From NCBI GenBank assembly GCA_017625615.1, contig JAGAKP010000068.1:54023-118022 (forward strand): DNA of 64,000 nucleotides, read 5' to 3'. Shown in pieces: positions 14,786 to 34,116 of the stretch. The position numbers and the translations under genes are program-made. The notes under the pieces are model-generated. The model worked only from the letters and a program-made list of their open reading frames with translations. It was not told where the DNA came from and searched no databases. The first letter of the stretch is position 1. Every line of letters begins with the position of its first letter. This stretch comes from Clostridia bacterium. GTDB lineage: Bacteria > Bacillota > Clostridia > Oscillospirales > CAG-382.

Positions 14786-14814
14786 AAAAAACGCCCGATT
14801 TCTCGGGCGTTTTA
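14786..14814. terminator. bidirectional rho-independent terminator
   Basis: Stem ACGCCCGA/TCGGGCGT (14791-14810) is flanked by A-run and T-run sequences between convergent genes. Confidence 0.7.
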
Positions 14815-14822
14815 AATCGCTT

Positions 14823-16256
14823 TCATTGAATGTAAAGTAACAGATCGTGATCGCAATGCTTTAGATATTTGTGGTACCAAACGTTGTAGCCTTCATATTC
14901 GCGGACGGAATTGCTTCCCGATACGTTGCAATAATACGTTTTCTTTATCAGAACGCCGTTTTCGTCGTAGAAGTATTCGGTTACGCTGTCAACTTTACCG
15001 CTATGATCGTTATATCCTTTTTCCGTCTTTTTAATTACTCTGCCGTTTTCATCGTAGGTATACTCATATCTGCAATAATCGTTTTCCAGATGCTCAATGC
15101 TTTTGTAATCGAAAGACGTTCTGTAACCGTTTTCGTCATATTCGTATACGTAGCGGAATATCTGAGTTTCGCCTTTTTTCTTTTCGTCCACCAAAAGATT
15201 TCCGTTTTCATCGTAGGTGAGCGTCTCAATGGCAACGGAACCGTCATAAAAACGCGTTTCCGCCTTTATCAGCTTTCCGTTTTCTTCGTATGTGTACGTC
15301 GTGACCTCGGAGTTGACCGTTTCTTCGATAATTCTGCCTTCCGAATCGTGCTTCCATTTTTCGATTCGGTAAACCCCTTGATCGCTGCTATAATATTCTC
15401 TGTGGATCATTCTTCCGTTGCTGTCGTATGCGTATCTTATTCCCTGTATTTTATCGTTGGAAGTATGGGTCGTAGTTTCTTTTGATGCAAGCAATCCGTT
15501 GCCGTACCAAGTAAACACGGTGGTTGCTGAATACCCGTCACGTTCCTCTGTGGTTTTCACCAGCGTACCGTCGGTATTGTAGTGGTAGTCAAGGTAGTCG
15601 CGCGTTCCGCCTTCAAATAAACCGTTTTTGTTAAAAATATAACTTATCACGCTTTCGCTGTATCCTCCGTTACTGTAAGAGGAGCGATACATAGATACGG
15701 GAAAACCGTTTTTATCAAGCGAATACTGAACGTATGCAAATCCGTCGTCGTTACGAATTTTATCGTTGTAATCGAAGTTTTGTTTAACATAAAATTCACC
15801 GAAATTTTCAAGCAGTTGAATAGCGTAAATATCGTTTTCTTTTTCTTGCAACAGATCGAACGCTTTTCTGTATTCACCGTTGTTAATAAGCGAAATTATT
15901 TCTTCATATCCCTTGGGAACGGTAATAACTTCGGGCGTTTCGGGGAAATCCTCGCTTATCATAGGCTTCGCAGGCTCTTCTTCCGGCTTGCTTTCTTCGG
16001 GTACGCTTACCTCCGGCTCGCTCTCTTCGGGCTTGCTTTCTTCGGGAGTGCTTTCATCGGGCTTACTCTTCTCGGGTTTGCTCTCCTCGGGCTCGCTTTC
16101 TTCGGGCTCGGACACACTTTCGTTCACACTCTCTTCTTGTGATACAGAGCGGGAAACATCTTCGCTTGTGTCGGCAGGCTCGTCGGCTGCGCATGAAACC
16201 GAAAATAAAATGACGGATAAAATAAGTGCTGTAAAAACTAAAACTTTGGTTTTCAT
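14823..16256 (-). CDS. lipoprotein with an acidic E/S/K/P linker and YD/RHS-like repeats
   Basis: Signal peptide plus lipobox (LFSVSC). The linker carries (E/K)S(K/E)PE repeats. Repeated Y-x-Y-D-E-N-G motifs follow (YTYDENGRVIKK, YFYDENGVLIKK, YEYDENGY). Confidence 0.7.
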   Translation of the reverse strand: MKTKVLVFTALILSVILFSVSCAADEPADTSEDVSRSVSQEESVNESVSEPEESEPEESKPEKSKPDESTPEESKPEESEPEVSVPEESKPEEEPAKPMISEDFPETPEVITVPKGYEEIISLINNGEYRKAFDLLQEKENDIYAIQLLENFGEFYVKQNFDYNDKIRNDDGFAYVQYSLDKNGFPVSMYRSSYSNGGYSESVISYIFNKNGLFEGGTRDYLDYHYNTDGTLVKTTEERDGYSATTVFTWYGNGLLASKETTTHTSNDKIQGIRYAYDSNGRMIHREYYSSDQGVYRIEKWKHDSEGRIIEETVNSEVTTYTYEENGKLIKAETRFYDGSVAIETLTYDENGNLLVDEKKKGETQIFRYVYEYDENGYRTSFDYKSIEHLENDYCRYEYTYDENGRVIKKTEKGYNDHSGKVDSVTEYFYDENGVLIKKTYYCNVSGSNSVREYEGYNVWYHKYLKHCDHDLLLYIQ

Positions 16257-16290
16257 TTGTTTCTCCTCCTTGAAAATGTGTGTATTTTTT
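16164..16290. repeat. junction module copy 1 (signal-peptide coding, RBS and 5' leader)
   Basis: A 127-nt stretch nearly identical to 18913-19039, with only a few mismatches by eye. Confidence 0.8.
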
Positions 16291-16322
16291 TGCGTTTTGC
16301 AATTATGGTGTAAGGCGTACCG

Positions 16323-17342
16323 TCATTCTTTATTTATGGGATGAACCGTGAAATATTCTTTCTGCATTTCGGGTGTACCGAAAAGGTAATCTGTATTGTG
16401 CGCCTTGTATTCCAAGTTTCTGAAAATTTCATTGTATGTTTCGAGGGTTATATCGAAATCATCAATGAACTTCAAAATATTTTGTTCTTTGTCGTCGGTG
16501 TTTGCAAGCCATTGGTTGAAAGCGTCCTGTCCAACGTAATTGATCAAAAGACGGTCTATGATGTAATAATATCTGGTATATCCGTTCCTGTCCTCGATAT
16601 GGGTGTAGTGATCATCAAGATCAGCATATCTGTATCCGTAGGGAATAAACCGTTCATCGTTCCAGAACTCGTTGTTATACCACACGTCTTCGGCAAATGT
16701 GGGATAAAATTCGGCATACACAGGCGTGCCGTAATGCTCATATTCACCCAAAGACATTATACGGCGGTATTCGTAATCCGTGTAAAAGCCTATATAATCC
16801 TCCCACGGTATGTTGAAATACTCCAAAACGTGTCCGGCGGCGATGTATTCGGTTCTATCAAACATAGCGAGATACTTTTCCCTTTCCGCAGTGCTGAAAT
16901 ACGAGTCTACGAAATGGTAATCCAAGCCGTAATAGCCTTTTACGTGCCGTTGACCGTTGGGGGCAACGGATCGGGAAATATATAATGCTTGGTCGATCAT
17001 TCCCGGCAGATCCTCCTGCGAATACCATTCGCCCTCGGGAAGCGTTCCGATAACGTAGCCGTCGTATTTTGAATAATCCACCACCGGCTCGCTTTCTTCG
17101 GGCACGCTTTCTTCTTCGGGTATGCTTTCTTCTTCGGGTATGCTTTCTTCGGGTACGCTTTCTTCTTGCGCCGTACTTTCTTCCGGCATGGAAACGTCTT
17201 CGCTCACACTCGTGTCGGCGTGTTGCGCCTCGGAGCGGGAAACGGTATCGTTCATATCGGCAGGCGCGTTGGCGTTACATGAAAACATAAACAAAATAAG
17301 GGTGACAATTAATGCTGTAAATACTAAAGTCTTGCTTTTCAT
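16323..17342 (-). CDS. Tyr-rich lipoprotein of unknown function
   Basis: The start is set at ATG 17342 (MKSKTLVFTALIVTLILFMFSC lipobox), preceded by AAGGAGGAG. The track's upstream extension only translates the conserved leader. Confidence 0.65.
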   Translation of the reverse strand: MKSKTLVFTALIVTLILFMFSCNANAPADMNDTVSRSEAQHADTSVSEDVSMPEESTAQEESVPEESIPEEESIPEEESVPEESEPVVDYSKYDGYVIGTLPEGEWYSQEDLPGMIDQALYISRSVAPNGQRHVKGYYGLDYHFVDSYFSTAEREKYLAMFDRTEYIAAGHVLEYFNIPWEDYIGFYTDYEYRRIMSLGEYEHYGTPVYAEFYPTFAEDVWYNNEFWNDERFIPYGYRYADLDDHYTHIEDRNGYTRYYYIIDRLLINYVGQDAFNQWLANTDDKEQNILKFIDDFDITLETYNEIFRNLEYKAHNTDYLFGTPEMQKEYFTVHPINKE

Positions 17343-17456
17343 TTGTTTCTCCTCCTTGAAAATGTGTGTATTTTTTGGTGTTTTGCGTGTATAGAGTTTT
17401 TTACCAGTTTCCTGCAAGAAGCTCTGCTTTTATGGGCAGCATGCTCTCGTCGGCGT
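17335..17456. repeat. junction module copy 2 (C-terminal coding end, intergenic leader, RBS and start of the next gene)
   Basis: A 122-nt stretch identical to 18999-19120 except for 2 mismatches. Confidence 0.85.
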
Positions 17457-19005
17457 CCTGCATTTTTAGTGAAATTTGGACTTTAAGAGATCCATTGTCT
17501 TCCGTAGCAGAAAAATCAAATCCGATAAGCATGCCTGTTTTTAAATCATAAGTGAAGTTGGCAGTATCTTCAAAACTGTTTTTATTTTCTCGCTTGTCTA
17601 TAATTATACCATCTCTGGGACGAATATGGTAATACAAGAATGACAGATATCTGTCTGTGCAATCAGTAGATACTGTAACGGTTCCGTCGGAATTGTATGT
17701 GTATTCCGTGCCTATAAAATTTGCAGAGCGAAGTAAATATAGCTCGAAGTCGTTTTTTGAAAGGGAATCAAAGTCGTTTCTGTTCATACTGAAAGCTATA
17801 TTTTCGTATATTGATTCACAATAAGATAACAGAATAAATTCTTCACTGGCTTGCGTTGTTTCCGTTTTGTCCTGTTCCCAGTGATCACCGTATTGATATC
17901 CGTAACCGTATTGTTGTCTGCGAACGGTTTGCTCTCCGTCTTTTAAATAAGAGTAGATGTTTGAATAAAAACCGTCAAGTCTGGTGCTTTCGTTTAAAGG
18001 GTAAGCGTTGTACGGCATCCTCTCGTAACTGAAAGCAGAAGTTATATCGTCATCGTTTTTTAAAACGATCTGCTTTATGTTTAAATATGACCACACGTCT
18101 TCTGCACCCGGAGTGAAGGTTCCGATATCGTAAAGGTTAACCTCAATCAGCTTGTTTGTAAAAACAGATTCATCATACACAAAGAAACTGTTATAAAACC
18201 GATTAAACTCTGTCATCGATTCTTTAAATGAATTTAAAGATGAGTATGTGTCGGTTTTATATATTTCATTTTCATCAATGCTGATTTCTTGGGTATCAAG
18301 ATATAACTTAAGATCAGTTTGAACTCCGTCGACGAAGACAGTGAAAACGTAACCAATACCTTCATAAACTGTCAACGCGCCCCGTACAAACGATTCTTCT
18401 TCAGCGTTGTCGGTGTTATTTAATGCGCAAGAACCGCTGAACTGATAAACTTGGTCTCCACGGTCAGAAGTTTTACGATCAACATCAAGTGTTTGGCTAT
18501 TTATAATTTTCAATAAAAGGTCTTTTTTCGAAAACGCGGGTTCTGCATATACAGAGATTAGCTCATTATAGTCATTTTCATCTCCGGATATAATGGAACG
18601 CGAAGTATCATTGACGATTATATCGATATTTTTATCCTTATAACTGTATTTGAACATATCAGTTTTAAGTGAGTGAATATCATTTTCAAAGTCATAAGAC
18701 AAAGAATAGCCATCATAAACTATTCGACCGCGTTTTTCTGTGTTAGCTGTAATCGTTTCCGCTACCTGAGCAAAAGCTTTTTTTATTTCCTCGGGCTTAC
18801 TTTCTTCTATAGGCAGGCTTGTTTTTTCGGGCGGCGGCGCATTTTCGCCAACGCTTTCTTCGGTGCTTGCTTCAACACTTTCGTCTTTGCTTTCGGAGGC
18901 CGAAACTGAACTGCTTGTGTCGGCGGGCTCGTCGGCTATGCATGAAACCGAAAATAAAATGACGGATAAAATAAGTGCTGTAAAAATTAAAACTTTGGTT
19001 TTCAT
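17401..19005 (-). CDS. lipoprotein paralogous to the extracellular domain of the adjacent M56 protein
   Basis: The start is set at ATG 19005 (MKTKVLIFTALILSVILFSVSC). It shares the blocks EEIKKAF, IYKTDTYS and FNRFYNSF and an identical C-terminus DADESMLPIKAELLAGNW with ORF 19064..21721. Confidence 0.65.
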   Translation of the reverse strand: MKTKVLIFTALILSVILFSVSCIADEPADTSSSVSASESKDESVEASTEESVGENAPPPEKTSLPIEESKPEEIKKAFAQVAETITANTEKRGRIVYDGYSLSYDFENDIHSLKTDMFKYSYKDKNIDIIVNDTSRSIISGDENDYNELISVYAEPAFSKKDLLLKIINSQTLDVDRKTSDRGDQVYQFSGSCALNNTDNAEEESFVRGALTVYEGIGYVFTVFVDGVQTDLKLYLDTQEISIDENEIYKTDTYSSLNSFKESMTEFNRFYNSFFVYDESVFTNKLIEVNLYDIGTFTPGAEDVWSYLNIKQIVLKNDDDITSAFSYERMPYNAYPLNESTRLDGFYSNIYSYLKDGEQTVRRQQYGYGYQYGDHWEQDKTETTQASEEFILLSYCESIYENIAFSMNRNDFDSLSKNDFELYLLRSANFIGTEYTYNSDGTVTVSTDCTDRYLSFLYYHIRPRDGIIIDKRENKNSFEDTANFTYDLKTGMLIGFDFSATEDNGSLKVQISLKMQDADESMLPIKAELLAGNW

Positions 19006-19120
19006 TTGTTTCTCCTCCTTGAAAATGTGTGTATTTTTTGGTGTTTCGCGTGTATAGAGTTTGTTACCAGTTTCCTGCAAGAAGCTCTGCTTTTATGGGC
19101 AGCATGCTCTCGTCGGCGTC
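18913..19120. repeat. junction module copy 3 (covers both copy-1-like and copy-2-like parts)
   Basis: 18913-19039 matches 16164-16290. 18999-19120 matches 17335-17456. Confidence 0.85.
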
Positions 19121-21721
19121 GGTTACGGTAAGGTCAAATTCGTGCTTATACCAAAAACCGTCTCTCGTAGCCGTGCAGTCCACGGAAAGTGAGGTCATCA
19201 TTCCCGTTTCGGAATCGTAGGTAAGCGTCGCAACATGGTCATAGACGTTTTTCTCGCTAATCCAATGACCGTTTATCTGATACGTTGTTCCGAACAGGAG
19301 ACTAAGTATATGTTGTCTTCCCGAACAGGTGAAATTTACGGTTATGGTTCCGTCGTCGTTGCTTGTGTATTCTATTTTGTCAAACGCGCAGACTATTCTT
19401 TTAAAGCAATGCAGGTCGGTGGAGAGTTTCCCGCCGTTTTTCAAATAATCCGTGAAAAATGTATCGTCTCGGTATACTTGTACCGAACGGTCGGAAAACA
19501 GCAACTCTTGCTCTTTGGAATCAACTTCGTCGTGTTTGATAACAGAACCGTACGGGAGGTCGATGTTGTGGAAGTTATATGCTTCCCAAATTCTGCGGGA
19601 ATCGTAGCCTTTTTCGGTTATATAGGAGTATGTATCGCTTTTGTATATTTCTCCCGACGGCCTGTAGTACTCCTGCAATTTCGCTACAACGTAGTCGTCG
19701 TTAGCACCAACCGCTACTGTCTTTTCGTTCAAATAGCCATTGGAGCCTCTGCTGTCCACGCCTTTGTAATTGACGTATATAGCTTTGTTAAGGGAATTTT
19801 TCCCCAAATTATATACGCTGCTGTAAAATTCATAAATCCTGTTGCAATAATCCTCGTATTCCTTCAAATCCTTAAAATTGTAAGTTTTATCCGCCTTGCT
19901 GTAAAGTATCGGCTTTGCGGGATTTGAATGCAGACCGAGCGTGTATTCTTTGGTAAAGGTCTTCGGGGTGGTTTTTCCGTTGTAAACCTCTTTGTAGTTG
20001 TATTGCGCAACGATTGTTATTTCTCTTTCCCGTGCTATGGCGTTTATCTTTACGGTTCCTTCATATTTTTCGTTGTGCACGTATTTTGCCGTGGTGACGT
20101 ACTGTTCGCCTTGAGGTAATTCTATAAAGGTTATTTCCGAATCCGTTTCAAGCAGCGTGCGTATAAGCTCGTTACCGTTTTCCCTTGTACGGGTGATCGT
20201 GTTTCCTGTCCATTTAACAAAGGTTTCGTAATCGGCTTTTTCAATAAATAACGCAACATTTAAGTCGTAGCCGGGAAGGTACGCGTAAATACCGTTATTG
20301 TAGTAGTTGTATTCGGAGTTGTTTTCTTCTACATACGTTGAATTATCCGCGGAGCAATACCTGATGGTAGTGCCGTTGTATTCTTCTCTGTATCCCGGTT
20401 CCTGTTTCTCCTTCAAAGCGGATAAATAATTTCTGAATTTTTCTTTTATTTCCTCTTGTGTGAGTTTCGGCTTGCTTTCTGCCGGTTTGCTTTCCTCAGG
20501 CTTACTTTCCTCAGGCTTGCTTTCTTCGGGCTCGCTTACGTCGCTTTCATCGATAACGTCGCTCACTTCGCTTACGTCAACAATGTTGCTTACGTCGCTT
20601 ACGTCGCTTGTTTCTTTATCGGCGGCGGGGCTTGTCAAAAAGAACACAGCTACTGCCGCACAGATAATTATCGCCGCTATCATTACCCAAAACAGCGGTT
20701 TCTTGTAATTAAGTGTGTTTTTCACTCGCTTTTTCACTCCTGTCTCGCCAAATGCTATGGGACAGGCGGAAATTCTGCTCTTGCTTACTCCGCATTCCAG
20801 CAGTGCTTCCGCATACGCTTTTCTTGCTTCGGCACTCATATTCTTTACAACCTTCTCGTCACATGCGTACTCGATATCCCTGCAGAGAAGGATGTAGCCC
20901 AGCCATACCAACGGATTGAACCAGTGAATCGTCAGTATCGCATATCCTATAGGTTTAATTAAGTGATCGCCGCGCTTCAAATGCGCTCTCTCGTGTGCCA
21001 GAACGTGCTCTTCCGTGGTTTTTGTAAGTCCGAAGGGCATATATATCCTCGGACGGAATAATCCCAGTATAAACGGCGAACCTACCGCTTCGCTTTTGCG
21101 TATGTCCTTTCCCTCGGGTATGGAGGTAGCAAGACGCTTTTTGAGAAGCAGATAGTTTATTACGGCGTTCAATATCAACACCGCCATACCGATCATCCAG
21201 ATACAGCTTGCCCAAAAGGTAACGGTCTGCAAAGCGTTTTTGCTTTCTCCGTTTTCGACCTTGGCGGTAGACTGTATAATGGGATTTACTCTGTCGTCAA
21301 TGGCGCTTATACCGCTGTGGATAAATTCATCGGGAACGTACAGATTTTCGGGCGGCGCAAAATGGTCGGGAGCATCTGTGTTCGGAACGTCATTGGGAAC
21401 ATCCGTATCCGCGGGCGGCGTATCCGTGTCCTGAACGGGCGTATCGGTGTCTTCATTTTCGGGCGGCGTAACGTCTGGCGTCTGCAGGACCGTCTCGCCG
21501 TATACCGATTCGGGGATTATCGTTTCTCTGCTGGGAACGAGGCTTACTGCGCTTTCCAAGGAGAAGGGCAGTATTAATCTTATACCGACCATTGCCCACA
21601 GCAGACATGAAAGCCACTTGGGCGCGCGTTGTCGTATAACGAGCCTTACGAGCATTACTACAGCTATCAGCCAGCTTGCCGTAATACTTAAATTAAGCAC
21701 GTCCAAAAATAATTTTGCCAT
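19064..21721 (-). CDS. BlaR1/MecR1-type M56 peptidase-family signal transducer with a large novel extracellular domain
   Basis: The N-terminus is typical of M56 proteins (LSITASWLIAVVMLVRLVIRQRAPKW). It has the HEXXH motif (LAHERAHLKRGDH), TM segments, an ESKPE linker and a C-terminal domain of about 450 aa. Confidence 0.8.
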   Translation of the reverse strand: MAKLFLDVLNLSITASWLIAVVMLVRLVIRQRAPKWLSCLLWAMVGIRLILPFSLESAVSLVPSRETIIPESVYGETVLQTPDVTPPENEDTDTPVQDTDTPPADTDVPNDVPNTDAPDHFAPPENLYVPDEFIHSGISAIDDRVNPIIQSTAKVENGESKNALQTVTFWASCIWMIGMAVLILNAVINYLLLKKRLATSIPEGKDIRKSEAVGSPFILGLFRPRIYMPFGLTKTTEEHVLAHERAHLKRGDHLIKPIGYAILTIHWFNPLVWLGYILLCRDIEYACDEKVVKNMSAEARKAYAEALLECGVSKSRISACPIAFGETGVKKRVKNTLNYKKPLFWVMIAAIIICAAVAVFFLTSPAADKETSDVSDVSNIVDVSEVSDVIDESDVSEPEESKPEESKPEESKPAESKPKLTQEEIKEKFRNYLSALKEKQEPGYREEYNGTTIRYCSADNSTYVEENNSEYNYYNNGIYAYLPGYDLNVALFIEKADYETFVKWTGNTITRTRENGNELIRTLLETDSEITFIELPQGEQYVTTAKYVHNEKYEGTVKINAIAREREITIVAQYNYKEVYNGKTTPKTFTKEYTLGLHSNPAKPILYSKADKTYNFKDLKEYEDYCNRIYEFYSSVYNLGKNSLNKAIYVNYKGVDSRGSNGYLNEKTVAVGANDDYVVAKLQEYYRPSGEIYKSDTYSYITEKGYDSRRIWEAYNFHNIDLPYGSVIKHDEVDSKEQELLFSDRSVQVYRDDTFFTDYLKNGGKLSTDLHCFKRIVCAFDKIEYTSNDDGTITVNFTCSGRQHILSLLFGTTYQINGHWISEKNVYDHVATLTYDSETGMMTSLSVDCTATRDGFWYKHEFDLTVTDADESMLPIKAELLAGNW

Positions 21722-21736
21722 TGGCGCTTCCCCTCC

Positions 21737-21754
21737 TGACTACTCTATTAGTCA
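21737..21754. promoter_or_regulatory. 6-6-6 inverted repeat (TGACTA-N6-TAGTCA) between the promoter and RBS of the M56 gene; candidate operator
   Basis: Perfect 6-bp arms read directly from the sequence. It lies between the -10 element and the GGAGGGG RBS. Confidence 0.35.
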
Positions 21755-21759
21755 TACAT

Positions 21760-21788
21760 AGTCTAACACATAAGACAGCGTTTGTCAA
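21760..21788 (-). promoter_or_regulatory. candidate promoter of the M56-lipoprotein operon
   Basis: On the minus strand: TTGACA (21788-21783), a 17-nt spacer, then TAGACT (21765-21760). Confidence 0.5.
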
Positions 21789-21933
21789 CAAGTAATTTTC
21801 TTTTTTTGTAAAAAAATCAAAAACGCCCGATTATCTCAGTCCTTTTGCCTTTACAATTTTATTATACGGAATATAGTTAAAATGTCTATAAACAAATTGT
21901 TAATAAATTATTTTTTGTACAAATGCACAAAAA

Positions 21934-21991
21934 CACGGGGCTGTTTTTGTATATAAAAACAGCCCCGTGAGGAAAATAAACCTCGCGGGGC
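21934..21991 (-). terminator. two overlapping hairpins with T-runs downstream of the amidase gene
   Basis: On the minus strand, GCCCCGCGAGG/CCTCACGGGGC is followed by TGTTTTT. Then CACGGGGCTGTTTTT/AAAAACAGCCCCGTG is followed by TTTTTG. The two stems share the GCCCCGTG segment. Confidence 0.6.
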
Positions 21992-21999
21992 GTCAAAAG

Positions 22000-23679
22000 C
22001 TATTTTATTTTACGTAATACGGCGATATAATCGTTGATTTTTATTTCTTTATCCCCGTTTATGTCGGGATACCCGCGGGAAACGTCCTCTCCCACGATTA
22101 TCCTGCGGATGCACTCCGCATCACGCTTGTCGATGATACCGTTGCAGTCGGCGTCACCCTGTATCACCTTGGTTGCCGCCTCCACGGAGGTGGTCACCAT
22201 ATACGCCGTGCCGTCGGTGCCGATAAGGTAATCGGGCAGCTTTTCGGAGGGAGAATAGGTCTTGCGCACGGTGCGCTCGCCCTCTTCGGTCATGGCGGAA
22301 TAGTATTTGTTTACCAGCTTCATAAAGTAGTTCCAGCCGGTGCCGTCGTGCACCAGAACCTTGTTGCTGTTAAGCCGCATATAGTAGGGACACTGCTTGG
22401 TGTGGAAATAGTAAACGTCTGTGTGCTGAAGTATCTTGTCGGGCGTAAGATCGTATCTCACCAAAAGCTCTGCGGTAAGCACCGCCGCGTTTTCCATTGC
22501 GGGCGTAAAGGTTTCGGCATACCATTTTTCGTATTCCTCACCCTTTGTGATAGGATCGTTGTTTCCGCCCGGTCCTACGGGTGCGCCGTTAAGACAGATC
22601 TCTATGCCTATGGTATAAAAATTATAGTTTGTCGCCGCGTGCCAGCCCGCAACCACGTCGGGCAGACCGTGGTATATCACGTTGCCGTCGACGGTGTAAT
22701 GCCACGACGAGGACGAGCCGTCGGTCTTGTTCACGAGATAATTGTGTACGAAATCCGCATCGGAATAGCTTTCGCACATACCCGTGTTGTGAATTACGAT
22801 GTAGCGGATATCGTTGACGTAATGGGAATAATAGGGTCTTCCAACCGACATAAAATCGTTTATTACCTTAACCTTTTCCCCAAATCCTTCACCGATGTAG
22901 AAGGTTTTATCAGGTTCGTCAAAATCCGCGCCGGAGGGGTAAGCGTGTCCTTTTACGGTGGTAATGCTGTTTTCAAGCTTACCGTTGGGAATGGCGTATC
23001 CGCTTGAAAGATCGTAGGTCCTTCCTTCACCGTCACCGCCGTTTTTGTTTATACGCTCAATATTTCCGTAGGCGGAAACGCATATTTCATCGGTCAGCGT
23101 GGTATACGCCGCATCCTGAGTAAAGGTTACTTTGATATATCTTGCGGAAAACGTCTCCTCAAGCTGAATACGGTTTATCAGTATCTCGGTGCGCTTGTTT
23201 TCAACGTTTTGAACCTGCAATTCACCTACGGAGAAAAAGCTCTCTCCGTCAATGGACGCCTTTACGGAAATGGAGGGGGTAAGTCCCTTTATGCGACGCT
23301 CGGTCATGGTGCGTATAAACACCTGACCTATCTCGCGGGCGATATAGCCAATATCCAGCGTAACGGTGACGGAATAAGTACCGCTTCCGCTTTCGGAACG
23401 GTAGCCTGCCCAGCCGCCGCTTCCGATCCAATCGCTGTTTTCGTAATCGATAACGGGTGCGAAGATACCGTCGGTAAGCTCATTGCCGCTGTCGGCGTAA
23501 TCCTCCAGAGGAACCGCATCCTCGTATTCAACGGTGTATGGCTTGTTGAGCGACACCGTCGCCTGCTTTTCAACGCCGCGCTCCGACGTATCGTACACGG
23601 GAGTTTTTCCTGCGGCGCTTGCCGTAAGGGGAAGGATCACCATCAGCGCCGCAAGTATTATTAAAACTGTTTTTTTCAA
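22000..23679 (-). CDS. secreted N-acetylmuramoyl-L-alanine amidase (Amidase_2/PGRP type) with a C-terminal dockerin
   Basis: Signal peptide, then the amidase block YIVIHNTG...SSWHYTVDG...AGWHA...TIGIEIC. The C-terminus has two Ca-loop motifs, DADCNGIIDKRD and DINGDKEIKINDY. Confidence 0.8.
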   Translation of the reverse strand: MKKTVLIILAALMVILPLTASAAGKTPVYDTSERGVEKQATVSLNKPYTVEYEDAVPLEDYADSGNELTDGIFAPVIDYENSDWIGSGGWAGYRSESGSGTYSVTVTLDIGYIAREIGQVFIRTMTERRIKGLTPSISVKASIDGESFFSVGELQVQNVENKRTEILINRIQLEETFSARYIKVTFTQDAAYTTLTDEICVSAYGNIERINKNGGDGEGRTYDLSSGYAIPNGKLENSITTVKGHAYPSGADFDEPDKTFYIGEGFGEKVKVINDFMSVGRPYYSHYVNDIRYIVIHNTGMCESYSDADFVHNYLVNKTDGSSSSWHYTVDGNVIYHGLPDVVAGWHAATNYNFYTIGIEICLNGAPVGPGGNNDPITKGEEYEKWYAETFTPAMENAAVLTAELLVRYDLTPDKILQHTDVYYFHTKQCPYYMRLNSNKVLVHDGTGWNYFMKLVNKYYSAMTEEGERTVRKTYSPSEKLPDYLIGTDGTAYMVTTSVEAATKVIQGDADCNGIIDKRDAECIRRIIVGEDVSRGYPDINGDKEIKINDYIAVLRKIK

Positions 23680-31415: not shown

Positions 31416-32144
31416 ATTTGTGATGCAATAGCATACTTTGGTGTAAAAGCAGATGATTTTAAGTCCAAAGAAGCCGCTTGGATAAATTTGCTCACCTTTA
31501 ATTTAAGTTCGGTTAACTAACCGCTTGTTGGCCTCGGTACGTTTGAAATATGTGAGCGTGGTGAGCATACCGATGAGAACCCTCAAATCGTATAAACTGT
31601 TACCATCACAGCATACAAGGCTCATGCATTCAAGGTAGGTAAGGTCCGTTAAAGATGATGTAAACAAGTAATCTGACAAGAATCATGTCCTTAATTAAAC
31701 GACCACTTTAAACTCAGGTGGTCATTTTTTGTTTATTGTTTGAAAGCAAGTACGGGTAATTATGAAATGATTTCTAAATAATAAAGCGAACGCTTTATTA
31801 TCTATTGGATTTCTTGCAAATATGATATAATAAACCATTATGGTGATCTGTATGACTACGAAAACGGTGCATGACTGAATAACGTAGATATCGAGAAATA
31901 TGATATTTTGATCAACGGTGAGTTGATTGAAAAGGAAATCCGCCATACGCTTCTTCTCGCGGTCAGCAGTTTGTTTTGGATAAGGAATACTTCTTGTCGA
32001 TCAAGTGTTATATTTGATTGGGGCGCTGCTTGGAATTTTATAGAGATTCTAAAGAGAAAAGAAAGACGTGAATGAGTTTTAAAAAAGTATATTTTTGTTT
32101 GTCCGAAAATGGATTGCTGAAGGTATATAGTTTATGAAGGCAGA

Positions 32145-32693
32145 ATGGAGGTGAATGAAGTGTCTAATAACTTTAAAGTGAATTATGTTTGCAATAAGGC
32201 CATTATTGGTATAGCGAGGGGCAATATTGATGCTCTTTCAGATGTTTATGATTCTATAGGCAAACAGGTTTATTTTATTGCATATTCCGTTTTGAAAAAT
32301 CATCATGATGCTGAAGATGTTCTCCAAAAAGTGCTTTGCGAAATCGTAAAATGTGCCCATACTTATAAACCTATGAGTAATGCGCGAGCTTGGATCTTAT
32401 CAATTGCTCGAAATCAAGCACTTAAATATCTTCGTGACAAGAAGATGCACATATCTTTGGATGATATTGAAAACGATCCTCAGTTTTCTTATGACGTTTC
32501 ATTCATATCTAATATGACCTTATTCGATGCTTTGAATAGCTTAACTGATGATGAAAGGCAAGTTGTTTTGTTGCACATTGAATCGGAAATGAAATTCAGA
32601 GAGATTGCTGATTTTCTTTGCATAACAAGTGATGCTGCACAAAAACGATATCAGAGAGCGATAAAAAAACTCAAGGCATACTACTCAAATTAA
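32145..32693 (+). CDS. ECF-type sigma-70 family RNA polymerase sigma factor
   Basis: Region 2 (DAEDVLQKVLCEIVKCAHTY..ARAWILSIARNQALKYLR) and region 4 (DDERQVVLLHIESEMKFREIADFLCITSDAAQKRYQRAIKKLK). Confidence 0.8.
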   Translation: MEVNEVSNNFKVNYVCNKAIIGIARGNIDALSDVYDSIGKQVYFIAYSVLKNHHDAEDVLQKVLCEIVKCAHTYKPMSNARAWILSIARNQALKYLRDKKMHISLDDIENDPQFSYDVSFISNMTLFDALNSLTDDERQVVLLHIESEMKFREIADFLCITSDAAQKRYQRAIKKLKAYYSN

Positions 32694-32706
32694 CGAGGTG
32701 ACCCTG

Positions 32707-33651
32707 ATGAAATTTGAAAAAAGAATAAAAAAGACTCTTGTAAACGATGCAGATATGTTTATGAGAGCGAGGAAGCAAGATATTCTTTCTAAGGATTTTC
32801 TTGATTCGGTAAGGGCACAACAGCCTTTGCGCAACAAGCGAGAGTTCGTTCCCGTTAAGCGTGTTCTTGCGGCTGTAATGGTTGCTGTTCTTGTCATTTG
32901 CTCGGTAATATTTGTTCCTTTGTCGTTAAGGGACAATGGTTTTTCTGTAATAGATCAAGGTTCTACGGATTCGGGATCTCGCCCAAATCTTCCCGTTATA
33001 AACGATCCTGTTTTTGAGCCGTCACAATGGGTTGGTGAGGCAGATACACCTTATGCAATAATTAATATTGGTGAAATAAGTAGTGACACAATCAGATTGT
33101 CTCAAAATGGTGTTTTGCAAAACTACGTTAAGGTCGAGGGTGAGGTCATTGCATCTTACAACACCGAGAAATTTGATATTAATAATTCTTCGCTCTCTGG
33201 TGCAGATGTAACCGAGTCAAAGGTTGTCGCATTTAATAACATTCGAGAATTTTATATAACTGAGCAGTCGATTGAATTGATTGAAGGATTAGATGCTATT
33301 TTTGTTAATGTTGTTAAAATGAACATGGATGGTAAATTTTATTATGGTCCGGTAACAAACGATCAAGGAATCGCGGAATTTCTTCCTGTGGTAGAAGGAA
33401 AACTTCAAATCAATGAGAATGATTATAACACTCGTTCTTTTTTGTCAATTAAAATCCTAAATGATACCTTAGATGAATTGATGGATTATCGTGATCGCGG
33501 AGGAGAAGAAACCGAATTCACAAAAGCGTTACCGTCAAAAAAGATTATGAACGGCGTATCTACTGATGAGGTTGATCTGTACTTTAAAGCATGGAATTGT
33601 GCAAAAAAGATCAATGCTACCAATCGTAGAACTTCCGAAATTCCGACTTAG
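32707..33651 (+). CDS. putative anti-sigma factor: a single-pass membrane protein with an extracytoplasmic domain
   Basis: It lies immediately downstream of the sigma gene. A short cytoplasmic N-terminus is followed by one TM segment (VLAAVMVAVLVICSVIFVPL) and an external domain of about 240 aa. The ATG at 32707 follows GAGGTG. Confidence 0.55.
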   Translation: MKFEKRIKKTLVNDADMFMRARKQDILSKDFLDSVRAQQPLRNKREFVPVKRVLAAVMVAVLVICSVIFVPLSLRDNGFSVIDQGSTDSGSRPNLPVINDPVFEPSQWVGEADTPYAIINIGEISSDTIRLSQNGVLQNYVKVEGEVIASYNTEKFDINNSSLSGADVTESKVVAFNNIREFYITEQSIELIEGLDAIFVNVVKMNMDGKFYYGPVTNDQGIAEFLPVVEGKLQINENDYNTRSFLSIKILNDTLDELMDYRDRGGEETEFTKALPSKKIMNGVSTDEVDLYFKAWNCAKKINATNRRTSEIPT

Positions 33652-33971
33652 CCAACAGAAAAGGAATTGTGATACCAATGGGCTATATTGTATAATTGGT
33701 TTTTTGCAACGTATCGTGAATTTTTAATCACATTAATGACTAATGGAGGAAAAGCATTATGTGCGGTTTTCCGTTTGTCGTTGGTTCTGCGATTTTGAGA
33801 TGCTATTTTGTCTGACGCATGAAACGACGCATAAAATTTTGGACTGTGTGAAAGTAATGGACTGAAGTGAATTTCATTATGTCCATATAGTACAATATAT
33901 CAAGGAAAATCGGAGATAATGTACAGAGCGACTAACTCTGTACTGCCACAAACAAAGGCTATTTAACATCT

Positions 33972-34025
33972 TTTAAGAAAACAACAAACCCGAACGTTTC
34001 ACCAATCGGTAAAAGGTTCGGGTTT
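33972..34025 (-). terminator. terminator downstream of tRNA-Leu
   Basis: Stem AAACCCGAAC/GTTCGGGTTT (33986-33995 and 34016-34025) with a 20-nt loop, followed on the minus strand by GTTGTTTTCTT. Confidence 0.5.
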
Positions 34026-34033
34026 GAATGCTT

Positions 34034-34116
34034 TGGTGCGGATGACAGGACTTGAACCTGCACGCAATTGCACCGGTTTCTAAGACCGGCTCGTCTGCCA
34101 GTTCCGACACATCCGC
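34034..34116 (-). tRNA. tRNA-Leu (anticodon UAG), CCA encoded
   Basis: The reverse complement reads GCGGATG..CCGGTCTTAGAAACCGG (anticodon loop CTTAGAA)..long variable arm..GCAGGTTCAAGTCCTGTCATCCGCACCA. Length is 83 nt with a class II cloverleaf. Confidence 0.9.

Follow-up and report, generated by a model that had tools for sequence, protein, structure and literature searches.

A 64-kb stretch of DNA from a gut or rumen Clostridia strain (contig JAGAKP010000068.1, positions 54,023 to 118,022; hereafter the window) contains, on its minus strand, a head-to-tail array of four co-oriented open reading frames, g1 to g4 (14823-21721), all at the positions given in a preliminary description of the same DNA. 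The first gene encodes a BlaR1-like M56 zinc protease fused to a large extracellular domain (ectodomain), and the other three encode probable lipoproteins. Comparison of related alleles shows that the ectodomain of this first cassette has been joined in frame to the M56 module, evidently by recombination within repeats that encode an acidic linker. The M56 module represents a conserved clade, shown in three lineages to be without a neighbouring blaI gene, yet with two palindromes that are putative BlaI-type operators. We consider it fairly likely that the array is a hypervariable surface-protein cassette locus, in which one ectodomain family is carried on interchangeable anchors (a lipoprotein signal peptide, a transmembrane helix or the M56 module), and that a BlaI-family repressor encoded in trans is cleaved by the M56 protease of g1. 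Coordinates are those of the window unless a locus handle such as L002 precedes them.

The evidence for interchangeable anchors comes from relatives of the array. The ectodomain family is small: a sequence search of 5.8 billion proteins gave 12 matches, and a profile search of 1.84 billion representatives gave nine clusters at E<1e-10. Almost all members lie at one syntenic locus, between an Amidase_2 gene on one side and a convergent GFO/IDH gene and an alpha-amylase gene on the other, and their usual form at this locus is a free lipoprotein or a transmembrane-anchored protein. The sister strain L002 (GCA_045630745.1), with flanks 98.3% identical to those of the window, carries a free lipoprotein, P0001, and an RHS lipoprotein; P0001 (L002 10247-11644) is 96% identical to the g1 ectodomain (19067-20464). 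Where the flanks are about 73% identical, L003 has one free lipoprotein and an RHS lipoprotein, and L007 and L008 have one free lipoprotein; L138, with the same synteny, has two paralogs, each anchored by a transmembrane helix. L011 (GCA_052829665.1; flanks 86-88% identical) has only an M56 protein, P0013, fused to a short ectodomain of this family, and the M56 part of P0013 is 82% identical to that of the window. A third M56 fusion, P0134 (L017/L027), lies in a different genomic context and joins an M56 part 74% identical to that of the window with a g2-type ectodomain, while P0133 is a free-lipoprotein form of the short ectodomain of P0013 (52% identity). Each ectodomain subtype occurs both free and fused to M56, and the domain is, as judged from this distribution, independent of M56. 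The preliminary description had pictured a sensor domain duplicated as a free lipoprotein; the comparison reverses this picture, because relatives have the family at this locus essentially as a free surface protein. Cassette content varies between relatives, and g2, g3 and M56 are absent from L002. In P0134 a further domain, about 200 aa long, separates the fourth transmembrane segment from the family ectodomain, and upstream of P0134 (L017 1913-2251) lies a gene for a 112-aa lipoprotein without a Pfam match.

Two events, delimited by blastn breakpoints, separate the window from L002. In the first, the M56 module of the window stands where L002 has a 212-nucleotide (nt) segment with a ribosome-binding site, a signal peptide and the start of a linker. 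The module is homologous to L011 7683-9002 (82% nucleotide identity). Its left breakpoint is at 21842/21843, and its right breakpoint lies at about 20537-20545, inside the 15-nt repeats of the acidic linker (Tandem Repeats Finder arrays at 20469-20537 and 20532-20609), where a three-way DNA alignment changes from L011-like to L002-like sequence between GACGTAAGC and GAGCCCGAAGAAAGC. A junction placed within 9-nt and 15-nt tandem repeats is also what would be expected if the assembly of a short-read metagenome had made a chimeric join through the acidic-linker repeats, and the exact fusion has been found only in assemblies of this strain, the window contig and the ENA scaffold L001 probably not being independent assemblies. 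However, the repeats in the linkers of the various genes share only 65-84% identity over less than 140 nt, the frame runs through the junction without interruption, and at its left side the module passes cleanly into a conserved intergenic region. Furthermore, independent samples have homologous proteins in which M56 is fused to an ectodomain of this family (L011 at the same locus, and L017/L027), and we regard an artefact of this kind as very improbable.

The second event concerns a segment with most of g2 and all of g3, which is absent from L002. It is bounded by direct repeats (19049-18913 and 16300-16164; 137 nt, 94.9% identical), and because these flanking junction repeats are nearly identical, the segment was probably inserted or deleted by homologous recombination. 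A DNA repeat of 137-228 nt in fact recurs at all three gene junctions of the array, running from the C-terminal tail of one gene through the intergenic region and ribosome-binding site into the part of the next that encodes the signal peptide and the beginning of the linker; the common signal-peptide and linker design of g2 to g4, already seen in the preliminary description, is confirmed and extends to these repeats. The two paralogs of L138 resemble each other in the same way, with 36 of 40 N-terminal and 24 of 24 C-terminal residues matching, 88 of the first 90 nt matching, and middle regions only 31% identical. Conserved ends around divergent middles indicate a concerted evolution of the anchor and junction modules. 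In the ectodomain itself the ratio of nonsynonymous to synonymous substitution (dN/dS) between the window and L002 is about 0.70 at dS 0.025, a value based on few substitutions and not significant; set against the 0.11-0.14 of the M56 module, it hints that selection on this surface protein is relaxed or diversifying, or at least fits with either.

A terminator sequence also recurs around these cassettes. The terminator that closes the array (14787-14817) is 94% identical to L011 7670-7701, which separates the M56 promoter of that locus from its amidase gene, and a degenerate half-copy, ATCGGGCGTTTTT, lies at about 21815-21842, the left edge of the M56 module in the window. The same terminator element seems to travel with the cassettes or to bound them, so far as the matching copies indicate.

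The paralogy between the g1 ectodomain and the neighbouring lipoprotein, g2, extends over the full length of both, as the preliminary description had proposed. BLASTP aligned them at E 2e-20, with 30% identity across some 300 aa and a further, weak match at the N-terminus, and hhalign of a g1-type profile (with g2 left out) against a g2-type profile gave a probability of 99.8% and E 1.6e-28 over 438 columns, from residues 3-466 of the g1 ectodomain and 2-465 of the g2 ectodomain. The final 18 residues, DADESMLPIKAELLAGNW, are indeed identical in the two proteins, and the homology covers the whole domain rather than the shared terminal 57 nt or so. One of the shared blocks that had been cited, IYK(S/T)DTYS, was rejected as a homologous block, the two copies aligning at different positions; the paralogy for which such blocks were cited is real. 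At 24-30% identity to the g1 ectodomain, g2 is evidently an old paralog and not a recent copy. Outside the array, g2 is closest to the ectodomain carried by the M56 fusion P0134 (28.6% identity, E 1e-46), and an NCBIfam search with g2 gave no match.

The preliminary description suggested that g2, and perhaps g3 and g4, could capture ligand for the M56 sensor or act as its decoys or co-receptors. The full-length homology of g2 to the sensor ectodomain is what such a role would call for, as is its position 58 nt downstream of g1, with predicted co-transcription and no terminator between the two. However, the low identity between g2 and the g1 ectodomain makes a shared ligand doubtful, and g2 and g3 look like an insertion or deletion bounded by repeats. 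Furthermore, the M56 fusions of L011 and L017 have no adjacent free paralog, and free family members occur without any M56 gene in L002, L003, L007 and L138. Among the compared loci, M56 fusions alone and free forms alone are both found and there is no obligate pairing of sensor and decoy, and we consider a partnership of this kind improbable.

The M56 part of g1 has the features of an active protease, and the HERAH motif that the preliminary description had recognised is intact. In addition to the Pfam match (Table 1), the HEXXH motif of g1 (HERAH, aa 243-247, 20981-20995) aligns with that of Staphylococcus aureus BlaR1 in the PDB entry 8exs (E 4.7e-5), and the motif EYACDE (aa 284-289, 20855-20872) is conserved. 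Kyte-Doolittle hydropathy gives hydrophobic segments at about aa 4-31, 36-62, 165-194 and 339-369, the last two of which flank HERAH; this is a BlaR1-like profile with four predicted transmembrane segments. When g1 was tested against the NCBIfam models of the BlaR1/MecR1 family (NF000326, NF033108 and NF033109), it scored far below the cutoffs, with 64.3 bits for blaR1_generic (cutoff 400), 41 for MecR1 (1200) and 20.5 for BlaR1 (1200). A Pfam search of g1 gave no match to the transpeptidase domain PF00905; the earlier statement that a penicillin-binding sensor is missing therefore stands, but its absence is no oddity, being the norm among M56 proteins (PMC13492132). In three pairwise comparisons between the window, P0013 and P0134, the M56 part had dN/dS values of 0.11-0.14 at dS 0.7-1.4, and all three proteins keep the catalytic motifs. 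The module is thus under purifying selection and is functional, in so far as activity can be predicted from conservation.

The C-terminal 466 aa of g1 have no Pfam, NCBIfam or PDB sequence match; the PDB sequence search gave only chance-level matches, to filamin. An AlphaFold2 model based on a 10-sequence alignment was of good quality (predicted local distance difference test, pLDDT, 88; predicted template-modelling score, pTM, 0.80) and consists of repeated modules of a helix plus an antiparallel sheet. In a Foldseek search of the PDB the best match was 4eg9, an S. aureus lipoprotein (E 4e-4). VioE, with a LolA-like fold of the open beta-barrel kind (LolA/LolB/VioE), was matched with a probability of up to 1.00 and E of about 1e-3, at template-modelling scores of 0.35-0.42 on the target; for all the weak PDB matches (LolA/VioE-like, TbpB, porin) the score on the query stayed below 0.21. 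A Foldseek search of a viral structure library returned nothing meaningful.

The region upstream of g1 carries more than the promoter that the preliminary description saw in its 278 nt. The g1 promoter, P2, reads TTGACA-AACGCT-GTCTTATGTGTTAGACT-ATGTAT-GACTAATAGAGTAGTC-AGGAGG and is accompanied by two palindromes, op1 and op2, that form a putative dual operator (Table 1). Each occurs only once in the window, where chance alone would give 0.02 matches to op1, and the op1 sequence fits the consensus for the promoters of blaI-blaR operons. The promoter and both palindromes are kept in L011 and L017, where the spacer between the palindromes varies and the offset of op2 is the same as in canonical blaI-blaR operons. 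A second promoter-like site, P1, lies further upstream in a region (21843-22000) that is 98% identical to L002, where it stands directly before the free lipoprotein gene.

No blaI gene accompanies these operators, and in this respect the preliminary description was borne out. A tblastn search of the window with five classical BlaI/MecI/CopY sequences (approximate sequences) gave nothing better than E 0.3, and a hidden Markov model (HMM) of 64 clostridial BlaI proteins gave no match at E<=10 among the six-frame open-reading-frame segments (50 aa or longer) of the entire window, the positive control scoring E 1e-56. Precomputed Pfam annotation revealed no BlaI-family (PF03965) gene near M56 in the window, L011 or L017, and the HMM detected no pseudogene remnant of blaI between the promoter and M56, where only about 16 nt separate op2 from the ATG. 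The M56 genes next in similarity (about 50% protein identity) are arranged differently: in all three loci (L012, L014 and L016) a Penicillinase_R gene lies immediately upstream. The promoters before blaI in L012 and L016 have the same -35 box as P2, an op1 (GTCTAA-N4-TTAGAC) over the -10 box, and an op2 a few bases downstream.

This -35/op1/-10 pattern, when scanned over one genome per species, was present at no fewer than 119 loci, against about 9 expected by chance in a rough hand estimate; the matches listed are mostly from Clostridia, namely Oscillospiraceae, Acutalibacteraceae, Ruminococcus and Lachnospiraceae. Among these listed matches, 57 promoters have a strong op2, and their first gene is blaI in 47 cases, M56 directly in two, another gene in seven and none called in one. 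For the 62 promoters with a weak op2 or none, the corresponding numbers are 19, zero, 41 and two. A metagenome scan for the cognate repressor with the op2 variant pattern gave four unrelated matches, attributed to chance.

Several of the listed loci have dual-operator promoters directly before genes other than blaI (L085, L095, L104, L116, L127 and L133), and these genes mostly encode exported lipoproteins or proteins with leucine-rich repeats (LRR), cell-wall-binding or dockerin domains. In one metagenome-assembled genome the operator precedes blaI on L122, and the same operator type precedes the gene for a 545-aa LRR/dockerin lipoprotein on L127, which is another contig. Judging from such promoters, surface proteins may often belong to the BlaI regulons of these Clostridia as targets in trans. 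L119 (JAZRPU010000289.1) inverts the normal blaI-blaR arrangement: behind its dual-operator promoter stands a gene for an M56 protein of 975 aa, which has repeated domains and LRR_5-like repeats, and a blaI-like gene comes second.

These operators also bear on the substrate of the protease, which the preliminary description left without a candidate. Because a dual operator typical of clostridial blaI-blaR is present, the likely target is a BlaI-family repressor encoded elsewhere in the genome. The most likely mechanism is one in which such a repressor, bound at op1 and op2, holds down expression of all four genes. Once the g1 ectodomain meets its cue, the cytoplasmic zinc protease would become active, cleave the repressor and thereby induce g1 to g4. 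The locus would in this way switch from constitutive expression, driven by P1 only as in relatives, to an expression that is signal-responsive and self-amplifying. In this model g2, g3 and g4 would be co-expressed cargo and not obligate partners of the sensor.

An alternative is that the M56 module works without BlaI, either as a polytopic anchor or as a protease with another substrate, the palindromes being relics of a blaI-blaR operon. All three members of the clade do lack blaI in the sequenced neighbourhood, and the M56 start codon sits at the expected start of blaI. Nevertheless, both palindromes have been conserved across lineages whose M56 parts differ at the synonymous distances given above, while the spacer between them varied, and a mere anchor would be hard to reconcile with purifying selection on the catalytic residues and the whole module. 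BlaI targets in trans have, moreover, been documented (PMC8457756), and we think the alternative unlikely.

Several points weigh against the combined reading of a swappable-anchor cassette locus and a repressor cleaved in trans. The repressor is one that we infer, and the sequence examined for BlaI amounts to the 64 kb of the window. Within the promoter region, op2 departs from the consensus (9 of 12 positions, with GAC...GTC instead of GTC...GAC), and transcription from P1, which lies upstream and looks constitutive, could continue through P2. The acidic, disordered linker between the fourth transmembrane segment and the ectodomain is long, which makes tight allosteric coupling uncertain, and the sequence and structure searches gave no ligand or function for the ectodomain. 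Finally, the direction of the swap is ambiguous by five-allele parsimony, M56 having been either gained here or lost in L002, and the restriction of the exact fusion to assemblies of one strain must be counted here as well.

The array is flanked by intrinsic terminators (Table 1). Because these bracket it, and because inspection of the array for intrinsic terminators predicted no strong or convincing one between the genes, which are separated by 58 (g1/g2), 58 (g2/g3) and 66 nt (g3/g4), the four genes are predicted to constitute one operon. The upstream terminator is kept in the sister locus L002.

Table 1. Features of the g1 to g4 array and its upstream region, in window coordinates
Feature	Coordinates	Strand	Basis or remark
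g1, M56-ectodomain fusion, 885 aa	19064-21721	-	Open reading frame, Pfam, BlaR1 alignment, hydropathy
Peptidase_M56 domain, aa 139-334	20720-21307	-	Pfam PF05569, E 3.6e-47
Acidic low-complexity linker after the fourth transmembrane segment, aa 368-419 (~50 aa)	20465-20620	-	9-nt and 15-nt tandem repeats
g1 ectodomain, 466 aa	19067-20464	-	Small lineage-restricted family
g2, probable lipoprotein, 534 aa from ATG	17401-19005	-	Distant full-length paralog of the g1 ectodomain
g3, Tyr-rich probable lipoprotein, 339 aa	16323-17342	-	11 homologs found
g4, YD/RHS-repeat probable lipoprotein, 477 aa	14823-16256	-	Pfam and TIGR01643
P1, promoter-like site TAGACA-16-TATAAT	21861-21888	-	11/12 consensus matches; without BlaI-type palindromes
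P2, sigma-70-type promoter TTGACA-17-TAGACT	21760-21788	-	TG before the -10 box
op1, GTCTTA-TGTG-TTAGAC	21761-21776	-	Palindrome overlapping the -10 box
op2, GACTAA-TAGA-GTAGTC	21738-21753	-	Between the -10 box and the ribosome-binding site; inverted repeat of the preliminary description
Intrinsic terminator of the upstream Amidase_2 gene	21934-21969	-	15-bp stem with 8 GC pairs, then T-run; upstream operon limit
Intrinsic terminator closing the four-gene operon	14788-14813	-	11-bp stem, then T-run
Junction repeat 1	18893-19120	-	g1 tail, intergenic region and ribosome-binding site, g2 signal peptide and linker start
Junction repeat 2	17230-17457	-	g2 tail, intergenic region and ribosome-binding site, g3 signal peptide
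Junction repeat 3	16144-16371	-	g3 end, intergenic region and ribosome-binding site, g4 signal peptide
M56 module without counterpart in the sister strain	20538-21842	-	Terminator remnant, P2 and two operators, M56 aa 1-395
g2-g3 segment (most of g2, all of g3)	16301-18912	-	Absent from L002 (blastn)

The products of g2, g3 and g4 are probable lipoproteins by their predicted signal peptides, which have a Lys-rich N-terminus, a hydrophobic core and no charge in the six positions before the box; the lipobox, read from the translations by a PROSITE PS51257-type rule, is ...ILFSVSC in g2 and g4 and ...ILFMFSC in g3. The AlphaFold2 model of g3, based on its 11 homologs, was poor (pLDDT 50), and a g3 homolog elsewhere, P0149, lies downstream of a Peptidase_M23 gene in a context that is uninformative. 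NCBIfam searches of g3, the amidase and a 233-aa protein gave no match. The YD/RHS-like repeats noted earlier in g4 were borne out by matches to RHS_repeat PF05593 (E 9e-08, 32.8 bits against a cutoff of 22) and TIGR01643 (26.7 against 15.8). In Pfam and NCBIfam searches g4, which is only 477 aa long, had no toxin, RHS-core or immunity-related domain that would indicate a polymorphic-toxin architecture, and orthologs of it are present in L002 and L003.

Upstream of the array, the Amidase_2 gene (an N-acetylmuramoyl-L-alanine amidase, 22000-23679, minus strand) ends in a dockerin-like segment, DADCNGIIDKRD...DINGDKEIKINDY, and its orthologs in L003 and L007 have a faint Dockerin_1 match. A dockerin on a peptidoglycan amidase suggests anchoring to a cohesin scaffold at the cell surface, if the segment is what it resembles. 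Elsewhere in the window, a stretch at 32001-34116 has a GC content of 36%, against about 47%, and a GC skew of +0.17. It contains a gene for an extracytoplasmic function (ECF)-type sigma factor (32145-32693) and a 317-aa open reading frame without a Pfam match (32698-33651), and it adjoins the sole tRNA gene of the window, tRNA-Leu (34034-34116, minus strand); a small island is one possible reading of it, a sigma/anti-sigma pair another.

Staphylococcal BlaI-type operators have half-sites of the TACA/TGTA type, and those of the window, of the GTCTAA or GACTAA type, differ from them. In other respects g1 resembles the BlaR1-BlaI and MecR1-MecI systems of S. aureus and Bacillus licheniformis (PDB 8exp-8ext; PMC9834060): it has an N-terminal M56 zinc-protease module with HEXXH and a conserved Glu, four predicted transmembrane segments and, after the last of these, a C-terminal domain predicted to be extracellular, and palindromic operators overlie its core promoter elements. 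It differs in having no transpeptidase sensor domain and no adjacent blaI, and in the disordered acidic linker of about 50 aa before the ectodomain. A transpeptidase domain is present in only about 6% of M56 proteins, the commonest architecture being a C-terminal region that matches no known domain, and a BlaI gene lies within five genes of about 96% of them (PMC13492132). The non-canonical BlaIR-family system CenIR of Clostridioides difficile likewise has an M56 C-terminal region without a known domain and is presumed to sense something other than beta-lactams. However, CenR has a BlaI gene within five genes, which the M56 clade of the window lacks, and the C-terminal part of g1, rather than being short or disordered, is large and confidently folded over 466 aa in the predicted model, and also exists as a free lipoprotein.

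The half-sites of the window have close counterparts in Clostridium thermocellum, where DNA affinity purification sequencing and electrophoretic mobility shift assays showed BlaI_0696 to bind inverted repeats of GTCTAT and BlaI_1845 those of GACTAT (PMC8457756). The real targets there carry two such palindromes, enough for four protomers, and BlaI_0696 also binds promoters outside its own operon, a regulation in trans (PMC8457756). Both op1 (GTCTTA...TTAGAC) and op2 (GACTAA...GTAGTC) fit these half-sites, op1 matching the GTCTAT repeat of BlaI_0696 and the GACTA(A/T) of op2 matching BlaI_1845. The two C. thermocellum repressors are encoded beside BlaR1 genes; in the window, the sensor gene stands alone behind the operators and heads an operon of surface lipoproteins.

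The Vlp and Vsp-type arrays of Mycoplasma consist of tandem lipoprotein genes with near-identical leaders, signal peptides and repetitive linkers and with divergent mature regions, and their gene number varies by recombination. The array of the window resembles them, by analogy only, in its conserved 5' ends and linkers, its divergent middles and a gene number that varies between strains. It differs in that the variation is between strains, with no evidence of phase variation, invertible promoters or site-specific recombinases, and in that one cassette is tied to a signalling protease. What appears unusual here is a blaI-less M56 clade that keeps BlaI operators, together with a sensor domain that, between strains only about 2% apart, can be exchanged with a free lipoprotein, and repeats that seem to mediate the exchange.

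Most M56/BlaR-like proteins have sensor regions whose origin and ligand are unknown, and the array is relevant to both questions. It provides a natural matched pair, in which the same ectodomain occurs with and without a transducer in near-isogenic backgrounds, and recombination between linker repeats and junction repeats offers a plausible route for the exchange of sensor domains. A broader proposal, which we hold only tentatively and regard as possible rather than probable, is that BlaR-type sensors gain their input domains by linker-repeat recombination with neighbouring surface-lipoprotein genes, that this locus has caught the process in the act, and that the blaI-less M56 clade feeds a distant repressor. 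Both the way in which BlaR-type sensors gain inputs and the question of whether an M56 protein signals through a repressor at another locus become testable here. If the proposal is true, several sensors could serve one repressor, and a hypervariable surface-protein locus would be under signal-dependent control. The dual-operator signature (GTCTAA-N4-TTAGAC, twice) is widespread and could be used to map the BlaI regulons of gut and rumen Clostridia, several of which seem to include surface lipoproteins.

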